Origin: a virus
Virus record (IMG/VR): IMGVR_UViG_3300045988_075790
Length of the DNA stretch: 62,548 bases
Direction: 5' to 3' (one strand)
Shown: one piece after another, positions 7,386 to 48,154 of the stretch
Layout of the letters: each line of letters opens with the position of its first letter
How positions within the stretch are numbered: the first letter of the stretch is position 1
Notes under the pieces: generated by a model
The model's database searches: none
The model's input: only the letters and a program-made list of their open reading frames with translations
Told to the model about the DNA's origin: nothing
Translations under genes and position numbers: made by a program

Positions 7386-8657
7386 ATGAGGGCGAAGAAA
7401 ATTGACCTCGAAAATTTTCCTACCAGCGAGAGTGCCCAGCGAATGCTGGCCTCGGTCACCCCCGGCTTCTACGATAAGTCCTATGTTGGCAAGTGGCTGT
7501 ATCAGGTCATGGGCCTCGAATTTGATGAGGCCGAAAAGCTGATTGCTGAGGAGCTGCCCCTGCAATTTTTCCCAGAAACAGCAACATGGGGCCTGATGTA
7601 CCACGAAATCAAGTGGGGGCTTCCTGTGCGCGATTATCTCTCCTATGAAGAGCGCAGAAAGCTCATCTACGAGAAGCGCGACCAACGCGCCCCAATGACC
7701 CCTTACCGCATAGAAACCATGCTCGGAAATGTCACCGGATTCTGGGCCAATGTCTGCGACATCCACGATGGCGGCAAGTATGGCTACAAGGTGAGCCATC
7801 CCAATACTTTTATTGTGGTTTTCGTGGGCGATGGAACCCTGAACACCAAGGCCGTAAAAAGGCTGCTGGATTCTGCCAAGCAGTCCCATACGACCTATAC
7901 GATGATCGACCGCATGGACACTGTGCTTGACTGCTCTACTCTGGAGCAGATGCTGCTGCGGAATATCAATATTAGAGCCGCCGTTCCGTTCTGGAGGGCG
8001 GCTCTGCTTGACGGCAGCGGCTATCTTGACGGTTCCATGCTGCTGGATTCCATGCGCGAGTATGATTTGCGGCTGGGCCTGATGTACCGTCAGGGCGAGC
8101 TCTACACGCTGCAGAGCATCGACCTGAAAAAGCTAAGGGTTTACCTCCAGTACGGGGTATCTGAGCAGTACGCGAACCAGAAAGTGCGGCACAGCATGGC
8201 CGTGTATTTTTGGCCTGCTCTCCGGCTCGATGGCTCTGTATTGCTGGATGGCTCCGAGGGCCTGAACTGGTCGAGACAAGACTGGCCTGTTTCTATCAAG
8301 TACAGAGTGGGCCAGTTTGTCACCCAGAACGATGTCATCATTCACCGGCTGAGGATTCCGCTCAAGGCTGAGCTGTCCGAATCCTATACAGCCAAGGTGA
8401 AGCATGGGGGCGAAGTTCATTTCTGGACGGCCCTGAAACTGGACGGCTCTGCAAAACTGGACGGGAGTGAGCTGCTGGATAAGTCCCGGCAGCCGTGGCC
8501 TGTCGCCGTCGCTGTGGCTGCCTCTGCTCCTCGTATGGCTGAGGAGATGGAGAACGCCACCGTTATAACCCGGAAAGACCTTGCGTACATGGACGGCTCG
8601 CTCCGTCTTGATGGCACAAGGATTTTGGATTCTGAATACAACAAGGAGGCTATCTAA
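7386..8657 (+). CDS. XkdU/gpI-like baseplate protein with four C-terminal 'LDGSxxLDGS' repeats
   Basis: 423 aa following baseplate J. Repeats are FWRAALLDGSGYLDGS, FWPALRLDGSVLLDGS, FWTALKLDGSAKLDGS, YMDGSLRLDGTRILDS. Confidence 0.55.
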   Translation: MRAKKIDLENFPTSESAQRMLASVTPGFYDKSYVGKWLYQVMGLEFDEAEKLIAEELPLQFFPETATWGLMYHEIKWGLPVRDYLSYEERRKLIYEKRDQRAPMTPYRIETMLGNVTGFWANVCDIHDGGKYGYKVSHPNTFIVVFVGDGTLNTKAVKRLLDSAKQSHTTYTMIDRMDTVLDCSTLEQMLLRNINIRAAVPFWRAALLDGSGYLDGSMLLDSMREYDLRLGLMYRQGELYTLQSIDLKKLRVYLQYGVSEQYANQKVRHSMAVYFWPALRLDGSVLLDGSEGLNWSRQDWPVSIKYRVGQFVTQNDVIIHRLRIPLKAELSESYTAKVKHGGEVHFWTALKLDGSAKLDGSELLDKSRQPWPVAVAVAASAPRMAEEMENATVITRKDLAYMDGSLRLDGTRILDSEYNKEAI

Positions 8658-9040
8658 TGGCGAAAAATGTTATTATCACCAAGACCGCCAGAAAGAAGCT
8701 GGTGCAGGCGAGGGCCGGCATTATTGCCCTGCCCAAAATCGTTGGCATGGCTTTTGGCTCTGGTGGCGTGAACAGCAAAGGTGAGGTTGTACCTCCCACG
8801 GACAACCAGACCACCTTGACCGCTGAGATGTACCGCAAGAAGATTGACGGCTACAGTGTCCTTTCGGATACCTCTATCCGTTATGAGTGTACCCTGAGCG
8901 AGAGCGAGCTGGCTGGCAAGAGCATCAGCGAGATCGGCCTGTATGATGCTGCCAATGATTTGGTCTGCATCAAGACCTTTACCGCCAAGGGCAAGGATGA
9001 TGACATCCAGATGACCTACACTCTGGATGACGTATTCTGA
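8657..9040 (+). CDS. Tail-fibre N-terminal (tail-collar/DUF3751-like) protein
   Basis: 'MAKNVIITKTARKKLVQARAG...IVGMAFGSGG...LTAEMYRKKI' resembles the conserved N-terminus of P2/Mu-type tail fibres. SD aaggagg. Confidence 0.55.
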   Translation: MAKNVIITKTARKKLVQARAGIIALPKIVGMAFGSGGVNSKGEVVPPTDNQTTLTAEMYRKKIDGYSVLSDTSIRYECTLSESELAGKSISEIGLYDAANDLVCIKTFTAKGKDDDIQMTYTLDDVF

Positions 9041-14771: not shown

Positions 14772-14990
14772 ACTTGAAAGGCTGCGAGCCTTTGTAGAGA
14801 GCGGGCGGCCCTGTGGGGCTGCTCACTCTTGATTTTTCATTTGGCGGCTGCGGCGGCAGGGCCTTCCACTCAACCGTACCCGGTTTGAGACGAAAGGCCC
14901 CTATATTAGACGAAAATCCCCCTGCTGATACCGAAGCCTCACGTTCCACGCGAGGTATATGTAGGTACAGCGGGGGGATTTTTTTATTTT
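14772..14990 (+). ncRNA. Candidate ~220-nt small RNA between promoter and terminator
   Basis: Hairpins aaaggct-gcg-agccttt and gcggccc-tgtg-gggctgc. Terminal long hairpin aatccccctgctg...cagcggggggatt followed by a T-run at 14979..14990. No SD-led ORF. Confidence 0.35.
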
Positions 14991-23406: not shown

Positions 23407-23459
23407 AAATAAGCGTTCCTGCGTTAGGGACCACTTGAATTTTGAAGGGAGATTTTTAC

Positions 23460-24053
23460 ATGAACGGTATGTTTTATCGTGGCGAGGTCTACTATGTTTA
23501 TCCTACTGGTAATGAGATTGGGAGCGAGCAGCACGCTGGCCGCCCGGCCATCATTGTGAGCAACAACCATAACAACAAAAACTCCTCCACTCTGGAGATC
23601 GTCTATTTGACCACGCGGGAGAAGAAGCCCATGCAGACCCACGTTCACATCAATGCTGCTGGGAAGCTGCAGGAATCCACTGCCCTCTGTGAGCAGATTT
23701 TTACTGTGGACAAGCTGCGGCTGAATGACTACATCGGCCAGCTGTGCGATAAGGAGATGCAGGACATCGAGTTTGGCCTGATGGTCAGTTTGGGCCTTGA
23801 CAACTACATTTCCAAGCCGAAAGAGGCTCCTGGCACTGCTGATATTGTTGGCCCTGTTGCCGTTCCCGACCCAGCCCCGGCTCCTGTCAAGAGTGCTGTG
23901 CAGGCCTTTTCTGATGGCCGCAAGAGCCTTGTGCAGCCTGCTGCTCCTTCTGAGGGGGGGCATTCTTACGAGCGGGAGTTTATCTCTGCTTGCGCACAGC
24001 GTGATGTTTACCGGGAGTTGTGCATGAAGATGATCGAGCAGCGGAGGGTGTGA
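23460..24053 (+). CDS. PemK/MazF-family toxin-like endoribonuclease domain with Pro-rich linker and ~60-aa C-terminal extension
   Basis: 'RGEVYYV...GSEQHAGRPAIIVSNN...VYLTT...THVHI...LCEQIFTVDKLRL..YIGQL' matches the MazF/PemK fold pattern. 197 aa versus ~115 typical. Confidence 0.65.
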   Translation: MNGMFYRGEVYYVYPTGNEIGSEQHAGRPAIIVSNNHNNKNSSTLEIVYLTTREKKPMQTHVHINAAGKLQESTALCEQIFTVDKLRLNDYIGQLCDKEMQDIEFGLMVSLGLDNYISKPKEAPGTADIVGPVAVPDPAPAPVKSAVQAFSDGRKSLVQPAAPSEGGHSYEREFISACAQRDVYRELCMKMIEQRRV

Positions 24054-43664: not shown

Positions 43665-44198
43665 ATGGATAAGATCAGAGCGTGGAAAGCTGGAGATGAT
43701 GAGAAGCAGGCCGAAGTGGCCGAGGTTAGAGCGTGGTTCCGCAAGCTGCGCGATATGGCCGAGGCCGTGAACATCCAGAAGGAAAAAGTGCAGAGGCAGC
43801 TGGATGCTGCTACCAGAGTCACCCAGAGCTTTAGCGGTATGCCTGTGTCGCCGGGAAATGGGGACAAGATTCTGGATGCCGTGTGTAGGGTGGATGGAGA
43901 AAGCCAGGAGCTGTCCCGGATGATGTCTGAGCTGACCAAGTTGCGTGTTGAGGCTATCTCCCGGACGTTCTGCATCGTCTATGCTGAGACCAGCTCCAGC
44001 CTGCGGGATGCTGATGCGCTGAGAGCGTATTACATCGAGTGCGAAACCAGAGATGCACAGGGCAACTTCAAGCTCAAAACGTATCTGGATGTATCCATAG
44101 AGTTGGGCGTTGCGCAGTCTACTGCCTGCGATAGCATCCGGCATGGGCTGGAAGCTCTGGCAGAGATTTGGCCCGACATCTCAAAGAGCTGTGCATAA
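43665..44198 (+). CDS. Late-gene regulator candidate (sigma region-4-like HTH; DUF1492/RinA/ArpU-type)
   Basis: Last early ORF before the packaging genes. 'SGMPVSPGNGDKILD' and C-terminal HTH 'YLDVSIELGVAQSTACDSIRHGLEAL'. Confidence 0.45.
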   Translation: MDKIRAWKAGDDEKQAEVAEVRAWFRKLRDMAEAVNIQKEKVQRQLDAATRVTQSFSGMPVSPGNGDKILDAVCRVDGESQELSRMMSELTKLRVEAISRTFCIVYAETSSSLRDADALRAYYIECETRDAQGNFKLKTYLDVSIELGVAQSTACDSIRHGLEALAEIWPDISKSCA

Positions 44199-44268
44199 TG
44201 CTCAATATGCACAAAACCTGAGCTTTAATTTTTATGCCTTCCCGGTGTGCCATCGGTGTGCCGCCGTG

Positions 44269-44298
44269 TTGCCGCTGGTACGCAGGCTGTGCTAAAAT
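44269..44298 (+). promoter_or_regulatory. Promoter TTGCCG-18-TGcTAAAAT
   Basis: -35 at 44269..44274 and extended -10 at 44290..44298. Opens the ORF-free region. Confidence 0.5.
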
Positions 44299-44458
44299 GA
44301 CATAAGCGCACCCGCGCAATGCGGAAACGCGCCGGACATAATGAAGGCCGGTGGGCTGGATGGCTTGCGCGAGCTGTTTGGCCTGCCCTCCCCATTACCC
44401 TTTATTGTGTTCCCTGCGCCACTGAAACAGCCAATGCTGTGTAGGTGGCTCTTTATAT

Positions 44459-44530
44459 GCGGATGTATGAAATGACAGCACCAGCAGCAGGCATCGTGTT
44501 GTGGCGGTTTGATTCCGTCCATCTGCACCA
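44459..44530 (+). ncRNA. tRNA-like module 1 (acceptor + T-arm + CCA, no canonical D/anticodon arms)
   Basis: gcggatg / catctgc acceptor (one G-U). T-arm ggcgg-tttgatt-ccgtc, then discriminator A and CCA. The middle folds as a 6-bp stem with a 14-nt loop. Confidence 0.3.
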
Positions 44531-44801
44531 GAACCGGCCGACCCCGTAGGCCGAAGTGGACACATGGCCCCATGAACCACCGGGAGCTTGCCGCGGTACC
44601 CATACGCGGCGCACCTCTTGGGTTCCTTTTCTCCTTTTGACACGGCGAGACCTTTCTTCTCTAGGATTCCTCCAAAACTTTTGCTTTCTACCAGTCGGAG
44701 GCCCCGGAACGCCAAGGCGGTACTTATCAGCCGCCCGCGTGTGTGTCCAAAAATAACAGCCCGCTCCTGAGCTGACCACCGCAGGAACGGGCTGTTTATA
44801 T

Positions 44802-44936
44802 GCCGTTGTAGCTCAATGCAGAGCGGCGGGCATTTAACCCGCGTCACACTGACGATACGCAGAGCTGATTCCTTCCGGCCCCTGTCATCCGGGAGGCTGA
44901 TGCTCTGTGGTGCTGGTTCAAGTCCAGCCATCGGCT
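44802..44936 (+). ncRNA. tRNA-like module 2 with 69-nt insertion between anticodon arm and T-arm
   Basis: Acceptor gccgttg/catcggc (one T-T mismatch). D-arm gctc-aatgca-gagc. Anticodon arm gcggg-CATTTAA-cccgc (A at position 33). Canonical T-arm gctgg-ttcaagt-ccagc. Confidence 0.35.
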
Positions 44937-44946
44937 ATTTTTATAT

Positions 44947-45076
44947 GCTGCCCTAGCGCAAGCGGAGCGCGTGAGGGCAGTGAACTGGTGACAAATTGTC
45001 ACCGGATGCCGCCCTAGCGCAACGTGGAGCGCGTTCGTGGGAGTAGCCACGGAAGGTTCGATTCCGAAAGGCGGCC
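44947..45076 (+). ncRNA. tRNA-like module 3 (duplicated 5' half, 9-bp hairpin, degenerate 3' tRNA)
   Basis: gctgccctagcgcaagcggagcgcg and gccgccctagcgcaacgtggagcgcg are two similar acceptor+D-arm halves, separated by ctggtgaca-aat-tgtcaccgg. The 3' part has ggttcgattcc and aggcggc. Confidence 0.3.
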
Positions 45077-45081
45077 ATTGT

Positions 45082-45157
45082 ACGGCAGTAGCTCAATTGG
45101 AAGAGCAGCGGTCTCCAAAACCGCCGGTTGATAGTTCGATTCTATTCTGCCGCGCCA
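45082..45157 (+). tRNA. tRNA-Trp (anticodon CCA)
   Basis: Hand-folded cloverleaf: acceptor acggcag/ctgccgc (A1-C72 mismatch); D-arm gctc-aattggaa-gagc; anticodon arm gcggt-CTCCAAA-accgc; variable loop cggtt; T-arm gatag-ttcgatt-ctatt; discriminator G; encoded CCA. Confidence 0.85.
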
Positions 45158-45208
45158 AATATGCGGTCTAAAAAGTGCATGGATACGCCAAAATTTCGTT
45201 AAAAACGC

Positions 45209-45237
45209 TTTACAAAATACACAAAAAGTAGTATAAT
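45209..45237 (+). promoter_or_regulatory. Consensus promoter TTTACA-17-TATAAT (late-operon promoter candidate)
   Basis: -35 at 45209..45214 and -10 at 45232..45237. Confidence 0.65.
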
Positions 45238-45288
45238 AATAGCGTAGAGAGGAACCGCAAAAGGTTCGTCCAGAAAGGAAGCGAGGAC

Positions 45289-45414
45289 ATGGATGAAATG
45301 ACCACCCCGGAACTGAATCAGTATCTGGAAAATCTGGCAAAGCTCATCGAGGCCACTGCAAAGACCCCTGAAGAAGCCGCACAGATCATCCGCGATAGCA
45401 AAATCAAGGTGTAA
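45289..45414 (+). CDS. Hypothetical 41-aa protein / leader ORF
   Basis: MDEMTTPELNQYLENLAKLIEATAKTPEEAAQIIRDSKIKV, hand-translated. SD aggaagcgagg. Confidence 0.4.
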   Translation: MDEMTTPELNQYLENLAKLIEATAKTPEEAAQIIRDSKIKV

Positions 45415-45468
45415 AAAAATCAGGCTCCCGTGAAAGCCTGCCAGCAGCGGGGAGCCTGAAAAGCGAAA

Positions 45469-45507
45469 AAGCCGCCCGGAAACTCTACTCCGGACGGCTT
45501 TATTGTA
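45469..45507 (+). terminator. Intrinsic terminator candidate T2
   Basis: aagccgcccgga-aactctac-tccggacggctt (12-bp stem, one mismatch) then tattgtat. Confidence 0.5.
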
Positions 45508-45533
45508 TCATATTAGCGCAAAATTATCAATGA

Positions 45534-45562
45534 CCCTGCCCACACGGCGGGGCTTTATTTTT
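45534..45562 (+). terminator. Intrinsic terminator T3 immediately upstream of the late genes
   Basis: ccctgcc-cacac-ggcgggg followed by ctttattttt. Only about 20 nt separate it from the ParB-like gene SD. Confidence 0.7.
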
Positions 45563-46326: not shown

Positions 46327-47214
46327 ATGCTGCGTGACGATTTTGCTGTATTCATCCTGACCCACGGGAGAGCTGACAACGTAGTGACCGCAGACACCTT
46401 GAAGCGGCAGAAGTATTCCGGGAAGCTGTATTTTATCATCGACAACGAAGATGATACTGCTGAGCTGTACCGGGAGAAGTTTGGAGCCGAGAACGTCATC
46501 ATGTTCGATAAGGCCGCTGCTGTTGCCAGAGCTGACACGATGGACAATATCTGCGAGCATCGAGCCATCTTGTACGCCCGAAATGAGAGCTGGAGAATCG
46601 CCAAAGAGCTGGGGCTGAAATACTTCCTCATGCTGGATGATGACTACAAAGACATCTTGATTCGCTGGCCGGAAGGAACCAAGCTCAAGGGAAAATCCAT
46701 GGTCGGGCCGCAGTTAGATGGCCTGTTCGAGGCTATGCTTACGTTTCTTGATGCTTCAGGTGCTGCTATGGTTGCCCTTGCTCAGGGTGGTGACATGATA
46801 GGCGGTGTGAATGGTGGCGGGTACAAGATGGGCTTGAAGCGGAAGTGCATGAACAGTATGTTTTGCAGGACCGATACGCCCGTAGAGTTCCGTGGAACGA
46901 TGAACGAAGATGTTACTACCTACACCACCCTTGGTAGCCGCGGCGTACTGTTTTTCACATTTATGCGCTGTCAGGTAACGCAGATTCAGACGCAAAGCCT
47001 GTCCGGCGGTATGACTGAGGCGTATAAGGAGAGCGGGACGTACACGAAATCTTTCTACTCTGTCATGTCTATGCCGTCTTGTGTGGAGATCGGGAAAATG
47101 GGAGGGAGCCACCAGCGCACCCACCATCAGATAAACTGGGACTGCTGCGTCCCGAAAATCCTGAACCAGAAATACCGAAAGGAGAAGAACGATGCAGAAT
47201 ATCGCCGGGAATAA
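46327..47214 (+). CDS. GT-A-fold glycosyltransferase-like protein (tentative)
   Basis: 295 aa. 'FILTHGRADN' N-terminal strand, 'FLMLDDDY' DxD-type motif and 'NEDV'. SD ggagga. Confidence 0.4.
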   Translation: MLRDDFAVFILTHGRADNVVTADTLKRQKYSGKLYFIIDNEDDTAELYREKFGAENVIMFDKAAAVARADTMDNICEHRAILYARNESWRIAKELGLKYFLMLDDDYKDILIRWPEGTKLKGKSMVGPQLDGLFEAMLTFLDASGAAMVALAQGGDMIGGVNGGGYKMGLKRKCMNSMFCRTDTPVEFRGTMNEDVTTYTTLGSRGVLFFTFMRCQVTQIQTQSLSGGMTEAYKESGTYTKSFYSVMSMPSCVEIGKMGGSHQRTHHQINWDCCVPKILNQKYRKEKNDAEYRRE

Positions 47215-48154
47215 GATGCTCGCCCACCTCGACCGCATCGTGGGAGAGCATAAGCCTATTACGGCAGATATATTCCTGAACAACTTTTGCAATAACCGCT
47301 GCCCCTATTGCACATACGGGAGATGGGAGCTTGACCCCGGTGCAAGAGCTATGAGCTTCAAGGGCTTCCGCAAGTATGCCACCCGCCTGATGGAAATGGG
47401 CGTGGAGGGCTTCATCTTGACCGGAGGCGGAGAGCCTACGCTCACCCCTGATTTTGACCGTATCACCGAATGGATGGACGAAAAGGGGCTGCATTATGGC
47501 ATCAACACGAATTTCAACGTGCTGAGGCTGCCCAGACCTGACTACCTGAAAGTCAGCCTTGATGGATGGGACGAAGATAGCTACGAGCACCGCCGCGGTG
47601 TGCGAAAGTATGCTGTTGCCGTGAAGAATATTCAGGACTACGCCGTGTGGAAACGCCAGCACAGCCCAAGAACGTCTTTGGGCATTCAGTGTGTTGTTAC
47701 ATCTCCTGATGACGTTATGCGCTTCTACGAGGCAAATTGCGACCTTCTTGTGGATTATATTGCGTTCCGACCTATCGAAAGCACTGGCGGGAAAGCCTAC
47801 GCTCTGGATATGGCGAAGGAGCAGGCTGCAAGGACGATGGCGGCGGTGAAGGAACTGGCAGCGAACGACAGCCGGGTGGTGCTCAATTTCAAGTGGGAGC
47901 TGCTGGACCGTCAGGAAGAATCCTGCACCGCATCGTGGGCGCAAATCGCCCTGAATGAGCGCGGCGAAGTTATGTACTGCTGCCACAAGCCGTATCAGAT
48001 CATCGGCCACATCCTCGACCCTGATATTTTGGAGAAGAAGAGCCGAGCTGCAACCGATATGGCCGGGTGTGACATTCCTTGCCGCATGACCGGGCCGAAT
48101 ATGTATGTCCACGAGATGCTGCTTGCTGGCCGGAAAGATGCCTGCTTCATCTGA
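47192..48154 (+). CDS. Radical SAM enzyme
   Basis: 'FCNNRCPYCTY' CX3CX2C cluster motif, 'LTGGGEPTL' SAM-binding motif and extra C-terminal Cys residues (YCCHKP, GCDIPC). Confidence 0.8.
   Translation: MQNIAGNKMLAHLDRIVGEHKPITADIFLNNFCNNRCPYCTYGRWELDPGARAMSFKGFRKYATRLMEMGVEGFILTGGGEPTLTPDFDRITEWMDEKGLHYGINTNFNVLRLPRPDYLKVSLDGWDEDSYEHRRGVRKYAVAVKNIQDYAVWKRQHSPRTSLGIQCVVTSPDDVMRFYEANCDLLVDYIAFRPIESTGGKAYALDMAKEQAARTMAAVKELAANDSRVVLNFKWELLDRQEESCTASWAQIALNERGEVMYCCHKPYQIIGHILDPDILEKKSRAATDMAGCDIPCRMTGPNMYVHEMLLAGRKDACFI

Follow-up and report, generated by a model that had tools for sequence, protein, structure and literature searches.

What does a phage produce from a long gap between its early and late genes in which no gene is recognised? 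We addressed this question for positions 44199-45157 of the virus record IMGVR_UViG_3300045988_075790 (62,548 nucleotides (nt), called the window below), a tailed-phage genome of ~62 kb with 55% GC. The gap of 883 nt runs from the stop codon of the upstream gene at 44198 to a tRNA-Trp gene at 45082-45157, and a first-pass annotation had proposed that it encodes a single large 'ornate' RNA resembling ROOL or GOLLD. We found that the locus is non-coding and carries a positionally conserved promoter followed by separable, conserved and covarying modules, which relatives shuffle, lose or replace. On balance we favour the reading that the region is one promoter-driven operon of small stable RNAs, cleaved and trimmed from their transcript, and not one large RNA. 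About 100 related loci (named L plus number) were compared; they were collected by searching with the upstream gene, by scanning viral contigs twice for DNA patterns and by one metagenome scan. The covariation was drawn from about 6-8 lineages. All close relatives came from human-gut metagenomes. The locus contains the following elements:

44269-44298 (+), promoter-like site found by pattern scan: TTGCCG, an 18-nt spacer and the extended -10 box TGcTAAAAT
44306-44332 (+), hairpin P1 beside the inferred transcript start: outer stem GCGC/GCGC, inner hairpin CCGC-GCAAU-GCGG
44336-44458 (+), variable leader, from folding: a long hairpin, one strand of which is pyrimidine-rich, a further hairpin (44418-44449) and the UCUUUAUAU spacer
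44459-44530 (+), M1, a tRNA-like module of 72 nt, from covariation of paired columns
44531-44801 (+), core RNA of no described family, from RNAalifold, minimum-energy folding and a z-score of -3.45
44802-44936 (+), tRNA with a giant variable arm (long-arm tRNA), from an Rfam tRNA score of 42.1 bits and cloverleaf covariation
44947-45007 (+), polymorphic insertion of 61 nt, from direct repeat D4 and inverted repeat I7
45008-45076 (+), M3, a tRNA-like module, from covariation of paired columns
45082-45157 (+), canonical tRNA-Trp with anticodon CCA, from ARAGORN and Rfam (60.7 bits)

The gap is non-coding and begins with a conserved promoter

The longest open frame in the gap lies on the minus strand (44395-44931, 178 amino acids). 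It is broken in relatives, whose longest frames in the homologous gap span 70-128 amino acids and differ in strand and frame. Protein coding by the 178-amino-acid frame was rejected on account of this disruption and of an amino acid identity of 38% where the DNA is ~75% identical. The flanking genes behave as coding sequences, being intact in relatives at 52-84% amino acid identity, and no genes were called in the homologous ~700-nt gap of four independent assemblies. The earlier description of 44199-45157 as free of genuine open reading frames was borne out.

The promoter pattern described by the first-pass annotation is present at 44269-44298, with 9/12 matches plus the TG of the extended -10 box. 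A -10-like box, often extended, ends 5-7 nt 5′ of the same AAGCGCA hairpin in 34/34 distinct relatives, and its position is kept even where the upstream gene is a different one. This hairpin, P1, is almost invariant across all lineages at the inferred transcript start; in L018 its outer stem is altered on both sides (AAGCGG/CCGCUU). No plus-strand terminator-like site was scored between 44300 and 45157. Relative to dinucleotide shuffles, all of which folded less well, the folding energy had a z-score of -3.45 in the core and of -3.88 over 44303-45160. The stem-loops named in the annotation were all recovered: 44312-44324 is the inner P1 hairpin, 44756-44795 is hairpin P7 of the core and 44987-45003 forms a further hairpin. 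Its description of the region as GC-rich did not hold, as the GC fraction is 0.558 against roughly 0.48-0.58 across the window.

Relatives gain and lose the modules independently

The composition of the locus changes from relative to relative. L017 has the core, M3 and tRNA-Trp alone, without M1 and the long-arm tRNA, and L010 has no M1. In L109 and L113 tRNA-Trp and an extra structured spacer are placed 5′ of the long-arm tRNA, a 75-nt Thr-UGU homologue occupies the long-arm slot of L121 and L136, and in the L019 lineage tRNA-Lys(UUU) replaces tRNA-Trp at the end of the locus. The variable leader is found in the window and in the L012 and L176 types and is missing from the L010 and L017 types. 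The same core is kept in L113, L114 and L121 despite a different upstream gene. The long-arm tRNA also occurs by itself, with neither core nor M1 nor M3, in a further group of gut phages (L315-L327); one of these, L323, has it once more between a small regulator-like gene and HNH/terminase genes. The largest unit that stays together among relatives measures ~250-290 nt, and every supported long-range pair is confined to one module. Because parts are gained and lost independently, and unrelated gut phages carry the long-arm tRNA by itself, these data argue against one large functional RNA of 0.9 kb.

The boundaries of the modules are marked by short junctions. A hairpin followed by UUUAUAUGC (repeats D1 and D2) lies immediately 5′ of both M1 and the long-arm tRNA, a layout resembling that of a tRNA operon. 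The first-pass annotation had listed three TTTATATGC junctions, each in front of a tRNA-like module. All three are present, at 44452, 44795 and 44940, but the third (TTATATGC) precedes a truncated duplicate, missing from some near-identical relatives, and not a complete module; the complete third module, M3, begins at 45008. The duplicate belongs to the 61-nt insertion, which consists of a partial, self-folding copy of the 5′ part of M3 (44947-44980) and a hairpin at 44985-45005. L004 and L007 are without the insertion: 44972 is joined directly to 45006 and the flanking DNA is 93-98% identical to the window. The minus strand of 44940-44985, which overlaps the M3 duplicate, resembles CRISPR-DR4 (23.9 bits, E = 0.018); we judged this match to be due to chance, its loop having 23 nt and that of the repeat 5.

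Furthermore, a conserved structured spacer of ~115 nt (UGCGUACCCUAGAGGGGGCGGCGCAAUAGCGG...) was observed between tRNA-Trp and the long-arm tRNA in L018 (5199-5314), L109, L113, L114 and L129. Two of its helices are altered on both sides between lineages, one reading either GCAUCUGG/CCAGAUGC or GCAUCCGG/CCGGAUGC and the other either GCAGCGGCAACG/CGUUGCUGC or GCAGCAGCGCCC/GGGCGCUGC. This spacer is not in the window and gave no Rfam match.

A tRNA with a giant variable arm and two unusual tRNA-like modules

All 4227 models of Rfam 15 were run on the window at gathering score, on 44100-45300 at E <= 10 and on five divergent relatives at E <= 5. No family other than tRNA matched 44100-45300 or the five relatives credibly; hits to YrlA, SNORD15 and P26 in 44100-45300 were at chance level (YrlA, a bacterial Y RNA, reached 16.1 bits, its gathering score being 69, with E = 3.7). 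Of the checks proposed with the first-pass annotation, the comparison of homologues revealed conserved covarying structure in the core, M1, the long-arm tRNA and M3. ARAGORN called tRNA-Trp, but neither M1, the long-arm tRNA and M3 nor a transfer-messenger RNA (tmRNA). The Rfam tRNA model likewise left M1 and M3 unmatched even at E <= 10.

The long-arm tRNA is recognised by the Rfam tRNA model (RF00005) with 42.1 bits, 29 bits being required, and its relatives score 35.7-50.1 bits. Its cloverleaf is paired in 97.5% of cells, with eight pairs altered on both sides. The anticodon loop CAUUUAA (44831-44837) places A33 at 44832 and the anticodon UUU at 44833-44835. U33 is near-universal in tRNAs; here position 33 is A in 32/32 distinct variants, although the loop has the usual 7 nt. 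The loops among these variants are CAUUUAA (24), UAGCUAA (6) and CAGUUAA (2), giving the anticodon UUU in the window and GUU or GCU in relatives. The one normal-sized homologue tabulated, in the same slot of L136, has U33 and the anticodon UGU. The D-loop of the window tRNA is without G18G19.

The variable region (44843-44911, 69 nt) folds as a long hairpin, with its apical GUCA (44884-44887) paired to a UGAC in the arm's base (44850-44853). This loop-to-base contact is kept in 17/17 sequences with two covarying positions (GAC/GUC, GGU/ACC and GAU/AUC). With 68-88 nt in all 32 variants, the arm lies outside the ranges of class I (4-5 nt) and class II (~10-24 nt) tRNAs. A mini-hairpin GUCA-CAC-UGAC at the base of the arm was considered and discarded, as the L018 lineage cannot form it; the loop-to-base pairing is kept throughout. 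A K-turn or C/D-box motif in the arm was rejected since the CUGAU/UGAUU internal loop is not conserved. We also rejected a suppressor tRNA, for which the loops would be read one base further 3′ (UUA, UUA and CUA): it needs an unprecedented loop geometry, the fixed U36-A37-A38 would yield the pattern by chance about half the time, and the phage open reading frames read through in the standard code.

A different tRNA-like gene was noticed at L271:2326-2463, on a contig of an Oscillospiraceae metagenome-assembled genome and ~3.5 kb 5′ of a related terminase. It scores 44 bits with the Rfam tRNA model and has normal acceptor, D and T arms, with a 79-nt insert in the place of anticodon arm and variable region. 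Phages of Oscillospiraceae-type bacteria may thus often carry expanded tRNA-like RNAs.

M1 combines a 7-bp acceptor stem, a T-arm (GGCGG UUUGAUU CCGUC) and an encoded ACCA end with features foreign to tRNA: a 9-nt connector takes the place of the D-arm, leaving no D stem, and an arm of 7 bp plus two further bp closes an AGCAG pentaloop instead of a 7-nt anticodon loop. In its alignment 96.9% of cells are paired, against at most 52% in slid controls, and seven pairs are altered on both sides. A tmRNA or two-piece tmRNA was rejected, as neither ARAGORN nor Rfam reported one and M1 closes on itself; a tag-like string (…DDSFA*) was dismissed as a tmRNA sign as it occurs in one lineage only. A T-box on either strand was rejected for the same restriction of the resemblance to one lineage and for want of an Rfam match. 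In M3 the acceptor stem, the D-arm (GCGC AACGUGGA GCGC) and the GGUUCGAUUCC T-loop look normal, in contrast to an anticodon-like loop of 6 nt (GAGUAG) and a weak T stem of 2-3 bp. M3 is paired in 96.3% of cells, three pairs are altered on both sides, and its DNA is 87% identical to that of divergent lineages.

The core is a separable structured module with a four-way junction

The core of 271 nt is probably a separate structured RNA within the proposed operon, with these parts:

44535-44553 (+), hairpin Pa
44557-44565 with 44741-44749 (+), P2, a long-range helix of 9 bp (UGGACACAU / GUGUGUCCA)
44566-67 with 44577-78 (+), P3
44580-44588 with 44700-44707 (+), P4
44590-44610 (+), P5, an optional hairpin
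44668-44673 (+), conserved UCCUCC within a variable linker
44709-44720 with 44731-44740 (+), P6
44756-44795 (+), P7, the terminal hairpin, followed by the UUUAUAU spacer

P2 closes a four-way junction formed with P3, P4 and P6. RNAalifold returned 46 pairs, 11 of them altered on both sides, and the architecture was reproduced by independent minimum-energy folding in 12 lineages. An R/Y position of P2 covaries (GC:10, AU:5), and in the most distant lineage (L176, L187 and L198) UGG/CCA of P2 is changed to CUA/UAG. P4 and the junction CACCGGGAGCU / GGAGGCCCCGGAAC are invariant among relatives; the junction resembles a site at which a protein or a second RNA could bind. The linker at the apex of P4 varies between ~60 and 110 nt, UCCUCC being its sole conserved stretch. 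P5 as an essential terminator was rejected, as the hairpin is missing from the L176 lineage. The core is not in Rfam 15, and its pattern yielded no match in 185,579 species-representative genomes. The earlier suggestion that the region may be a new class therefore applies to the core, which matches no described RNA family.

A proposed route from one transcript to several RNAs

RNase P needs only an acceptor/T-arm helix, and 3′ ends are trimmed by RNase Z or exonucleases. Given this recognition, host RNase P would cleave the primary transcript wherever a tRNA-like module begins to fold, and RNase Z or exonucleases would trim the 3′ side, so that M1, the core, the long-arm tRNA, M3 and tRNA-Trp would be released. 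The pieces 5′ of the cuts end in a hairpin and a U-rich tail (44418-44458 and 44756-44801), which could protect the excised non-tRNA pieces. The five RNAs would then accumulate as separate species, as in the tRNA cluster of phage T4.

A more speculative step concerns function: the tRNA-derived modules may counter host defences that cleave tRNAs. The anticodons found in the variable slot, namely Lys-UUU, Asn-GUU, Ser-GCU or, in a normal-sized tRNA, Thr-UGU, all read ANN codons. Three of them correspond to targets of the nuclease AriB, and A33 adjoins the cleavage site of PrrC. In view of this anticodon set and of A33, the tRNA-derived members might supply or mimic tRNAs attacked by host nucleases, as resistant substitutes or as decoys, and the folded 69-nt arm might block or bind the cleaving enzymes.

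Several points weigh against this account. We infer cleavage by RNase P and RNase Z from shape, namely the acceptor/T-arm helices and the ACCA end that M1 encodes, and few independent events stand behind the covariation counts. Nothing ties a Faecalibacterium- or Lawsonibacter-type host to PARIS or PrrC, and no such nuclease is known there. AriB is not known to target Ser-GCU. The long-arm RNA may not decode at all, given A33 and the absence of G18G19 from the window D-loop, and a long variable arm is an identity element for seryl-tRNA synthetase. P1 and the core may also have a cis-acting role, taken up below.

In its most extended form, our proposal would make the long-arm RNA a new structural class of tRNA from gut Oscillospirales phages, join it with M1 and M3 in an RNA-only counter-defence island of nuclease-resistant RNAs that replace ANN-reading tRNAs (Lys, Asn, Thr, Ser) or serve as decoys for them, and regard the core as a new trans-acting phage RNA family. 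We offer this combination tentatively, as it is rather unlikely to be correct in all its parts.

Alternative explanations

The alternative that survives best sees in the locus a cis-acting leader for the late operon. RNA polymerase and the upstream gene product would jointly read P1 and the core as an antitermination or attenuation element, with the tRNAs as passengers; lambda Q with the PR′ and 6S leader, or put RNA, would be the analogues. The element begins directly after a gene with faint similarity to sigma-70 region 4, but L113, L114 and L121 combine another upstream gene with the same core. All lineages keep P1 at the transcript start, as expected of such a leader. U/C-rich tracts follow the GC-rich hairpins P5 and P7; however, no plus-strand terminator-like site was scored within the region, P5 is missing from the L176 lineage, and the invariant four-way junction exceeds what a terminator needs. 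The order of regulator-like gene, structured leader, long-arm tRNA, terminator and HNH/terS/terL recurs in the unrelated phage L323, which speaks for a leader, whereas in the window the stronger promoter 3′ of the locus (45209-45237, 11/12 matches) could drive the late genes alone. We consider this explanation unlikely, although it is compatible with an operon of small RNAs and does not exclude it.

The proposal of the first-pass annotation, one 'ornate' RNA of ~0.85 kb folded as a single unit and resembling ROOL or GOLLD, fares clearly worse and appears very improbable. The whole stretch has one promoter and no internal terminator-like site and folds better than its shuffles (z = -3.88), and GOLLD and ROOL often lie beside tRNA genes in (pro)phages. 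However, neither these two nor any other large-RNA model matched the window at gathering score, 44100-45300 at E <= 10 or the five relatives at E <= 5. A member of ROOL or GOLLD would be expected to stay together as one RNA of ~500-800 nt, whereas here the core is retained while M1, the long-arm tRNA, M3 and tRNA-Trp are dropped or swapped, and the long-arm tRNA is found without the rest.

Least credible is a decaying tRNA array, with M1, M3 and the long-arm tRNA as pseudogenes and the remainder as functionless spacer, which would fit the call of tRNA-Trp alone by ARAGORN, the failure of M1 and M3 in the Rfam tRNA model, the non-canonical anticodon loops (pentaloop, 6-nt loop, A33) and the polymorphic 61-nt partial duplication, but is contradicted by pairing that two-sided changes have preserved in each of the modules, by 86-89% identity of M3 and 'block A' between lineages whose neighbouring protein is 55-67% identical, and by the conservation of A33 and the loop-to-base contact in all variants. 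Covariation and modularity thus disfavour both the pseudogene and the single-RNA explanation.

Phage, host and gene neighbourhood

The locus was placed at the early/late boundary by the first-pass annotation, in agreement with its neighbours. On the 5′ side lie replication and recombination genes, coding for RecT, a DnaB_2-type replication protein, a helicase-methylase and RecU, and a DUF7694 protein; on the 3′ side follow a ParB-like protein, a TET-associated glycosyltransferase, a radical-SAM protein and the packaging genes for large terminase and portal. Contigs assigned to Lawsonibacter asaccharolyticus and Faecalibacterium prausnitzii carry copies of the terminase with 81-82% identity, and a homologue of the upstream gene, 67% identical, is recorded from Faecalibacterium sp. 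9. The relative with this homologue lies on a 685-kb contig of assembly GCA_048320955.1. The host is thus probably of the Faecalibacterium or Lawsonibacter type, a Gram-positive gut anaerobe.

The designation of the upstream gene as 'late-regulator-like' is backed by weak sigma-70 region 4 hints and was not further substantiated. The fold model of its protein is mostly coiled coil (predicted local distance difference test score 72.8), and Foldseek found nothing in the PDB at E <= 0.001; with no usable fold match, a role as regulator stays unproven. An inverted repeat TGTGCATAATG / CAATATGCACA at 44190-44213 straddles the stop codon of this gene, and similar GTGCA...TGCAC repeats occupy the equivalent site in relatives. 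It may be a candidate operator for a DNA-binding regulator.

Directly 3′ of tRNA-Trp we observed a near-consensus promoter (TTTACA-17-TATAAT, 45209-45237), followed by a conserved leader hairpin, a conserved open reading frame of 41 amino acids (45289-45414) and bidirectional terminator-like hairpins (45421-45552). The glycosyltransferase and radical-SAM genes further 3′, after the ParB-like protein (46327-48154), are DNA-hypermodification genes; the related phages L328-L331 carry another gene set there (8544-9011), including a gene of the QueT family of queuosine-precursor transporters. In the early region, a frame of 203 amino acids (23442-24053, +) contains a PemK/MazF-like endoribonuclease toxin domain (Pfam E = 2e-21). 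Apart from this distant domain, a partial Pfam scan of the phage found no RNA-handling enzymes. A second non-coding RNA of the phage, unrelated to the locus at 44199-45157, is a full-length Rfam match to DUF3800-VIII RNA at 14916-14979 (+), with 74.1 bits against a threshold of 40.2.

Comparison with known RNA families and systems

As a kind of locus, a phage operon of tRNAs and small RNAs is already known; its members here are not. We found no description in the literature of a ~70-nt variable arm pseudoknotted to its own base in a tRNA with A33, and a survey of 10,006 candidate viral RNAs may hold parts of the locus (PMC10690425). A search of cultured-phage records for similar DNA matched tRNA-Trp alone.

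ROOL and GOLLD share with the locus a Firmicutes phage or prophage setting with tRNA genes nearby. The locus differs from them in being modular, in a largest conserved unit of ~270 nt and in the lack of a covariance-model match. M1 resembles the tRNA-like domain of tmRNA and YrlA in its acceptor stem, T-arm, single-stranded D-analogue and encoded CCA end; a G3-U70 pair with A73, as in tmRNA, occurs in some lineages, G3-U70 not being conserved. Unlike tmRNA, M1 has no mRNA-like domain, has both ends in the acceptor stem and is not permuted.

Class II tRNAs (Ser, Leu, Tyr, Sec) likewise carry an extra helix between anticodon and T arms, and the GCU of some relatives is the anticodon of class II tRNA-Ser. 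Their variable arm is defined as 'greater than 10 nucleotides', and allo-tRNAs combine a long arm with unexpected anticodons (PMC7609411). The long-arm tRNA differs from both in an arm of 68-88 nt that is pseudoknotted to its own base and in A33 replacing U33, and from allo-tRNAs also in its canonical acceptor and T stems of 7 and 5 bp, where allo-tRNAs have 8/4 or 9/3. No class II tRNA or allo-tRNA is known to have an arm approaching this length.

Phage tRNA genes are now viewed as weapons against host immunity that cleaves tRNAs. AriB of the PARIS system cleaves tRNA-Lys, -Thr and -Asn, which are replaced by tRNAs of phage T5 (PMC12409363), and changes in the anticodon loops of phage tRNAs have been proposed to evade nucleases (PMC10264068). 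Lys-UUU, Asn-GUU and Thr-UGU occupy the variable slot here, and the anticodon stem-loop departs from the normal form as in anti-nuclease tRNAs of T5 and of mycobacteriophages facing VapC (PMC12409363, PMC10264068). Those tRNAs are of normal size with point changes, whereas the RNAs described here are remodelled. The locus suggests that gut phages have moved past point-mutated tRNAs to heavily remodelled tRNA-derived RNAs, such as a tRNA with a folded 69-nt arm and A33, a mini-tRNA without D-arm and with an encoded CCA, and a tRNA-like RNA with a 6-nt loop. It also adds a compact RNA of ~270 nt, supported by covariation and new to Rfam, from phages whose Faecalibacterium-type hosts abound in the human gut. 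As the modules are short and sharply bounded, hypotheses on processing, charging and nuclease resistance are directly testable in vitro.

The closest model for the working of the locus is the tRNA cluster of phage T4, in which small structured RNAs likewise lie among phage tRNA genes. Its RNAs C and D are released by tRNA-processing enzymes. The two, also called species 1 and 2, are transcribed from the tRNA region (PMC3014915). The locus shares with such an operon small RNAs interleaved with tRNA genes, one conserved promoter and short AU-rich spacers. There is no sequence relation between the two, and the locus differs in that only one of its five or six predicted products is a canonical tRNA, its largest product is a four-way-junction RNA of 271 nt, and its host is a Gram-positive gut anaerobe.

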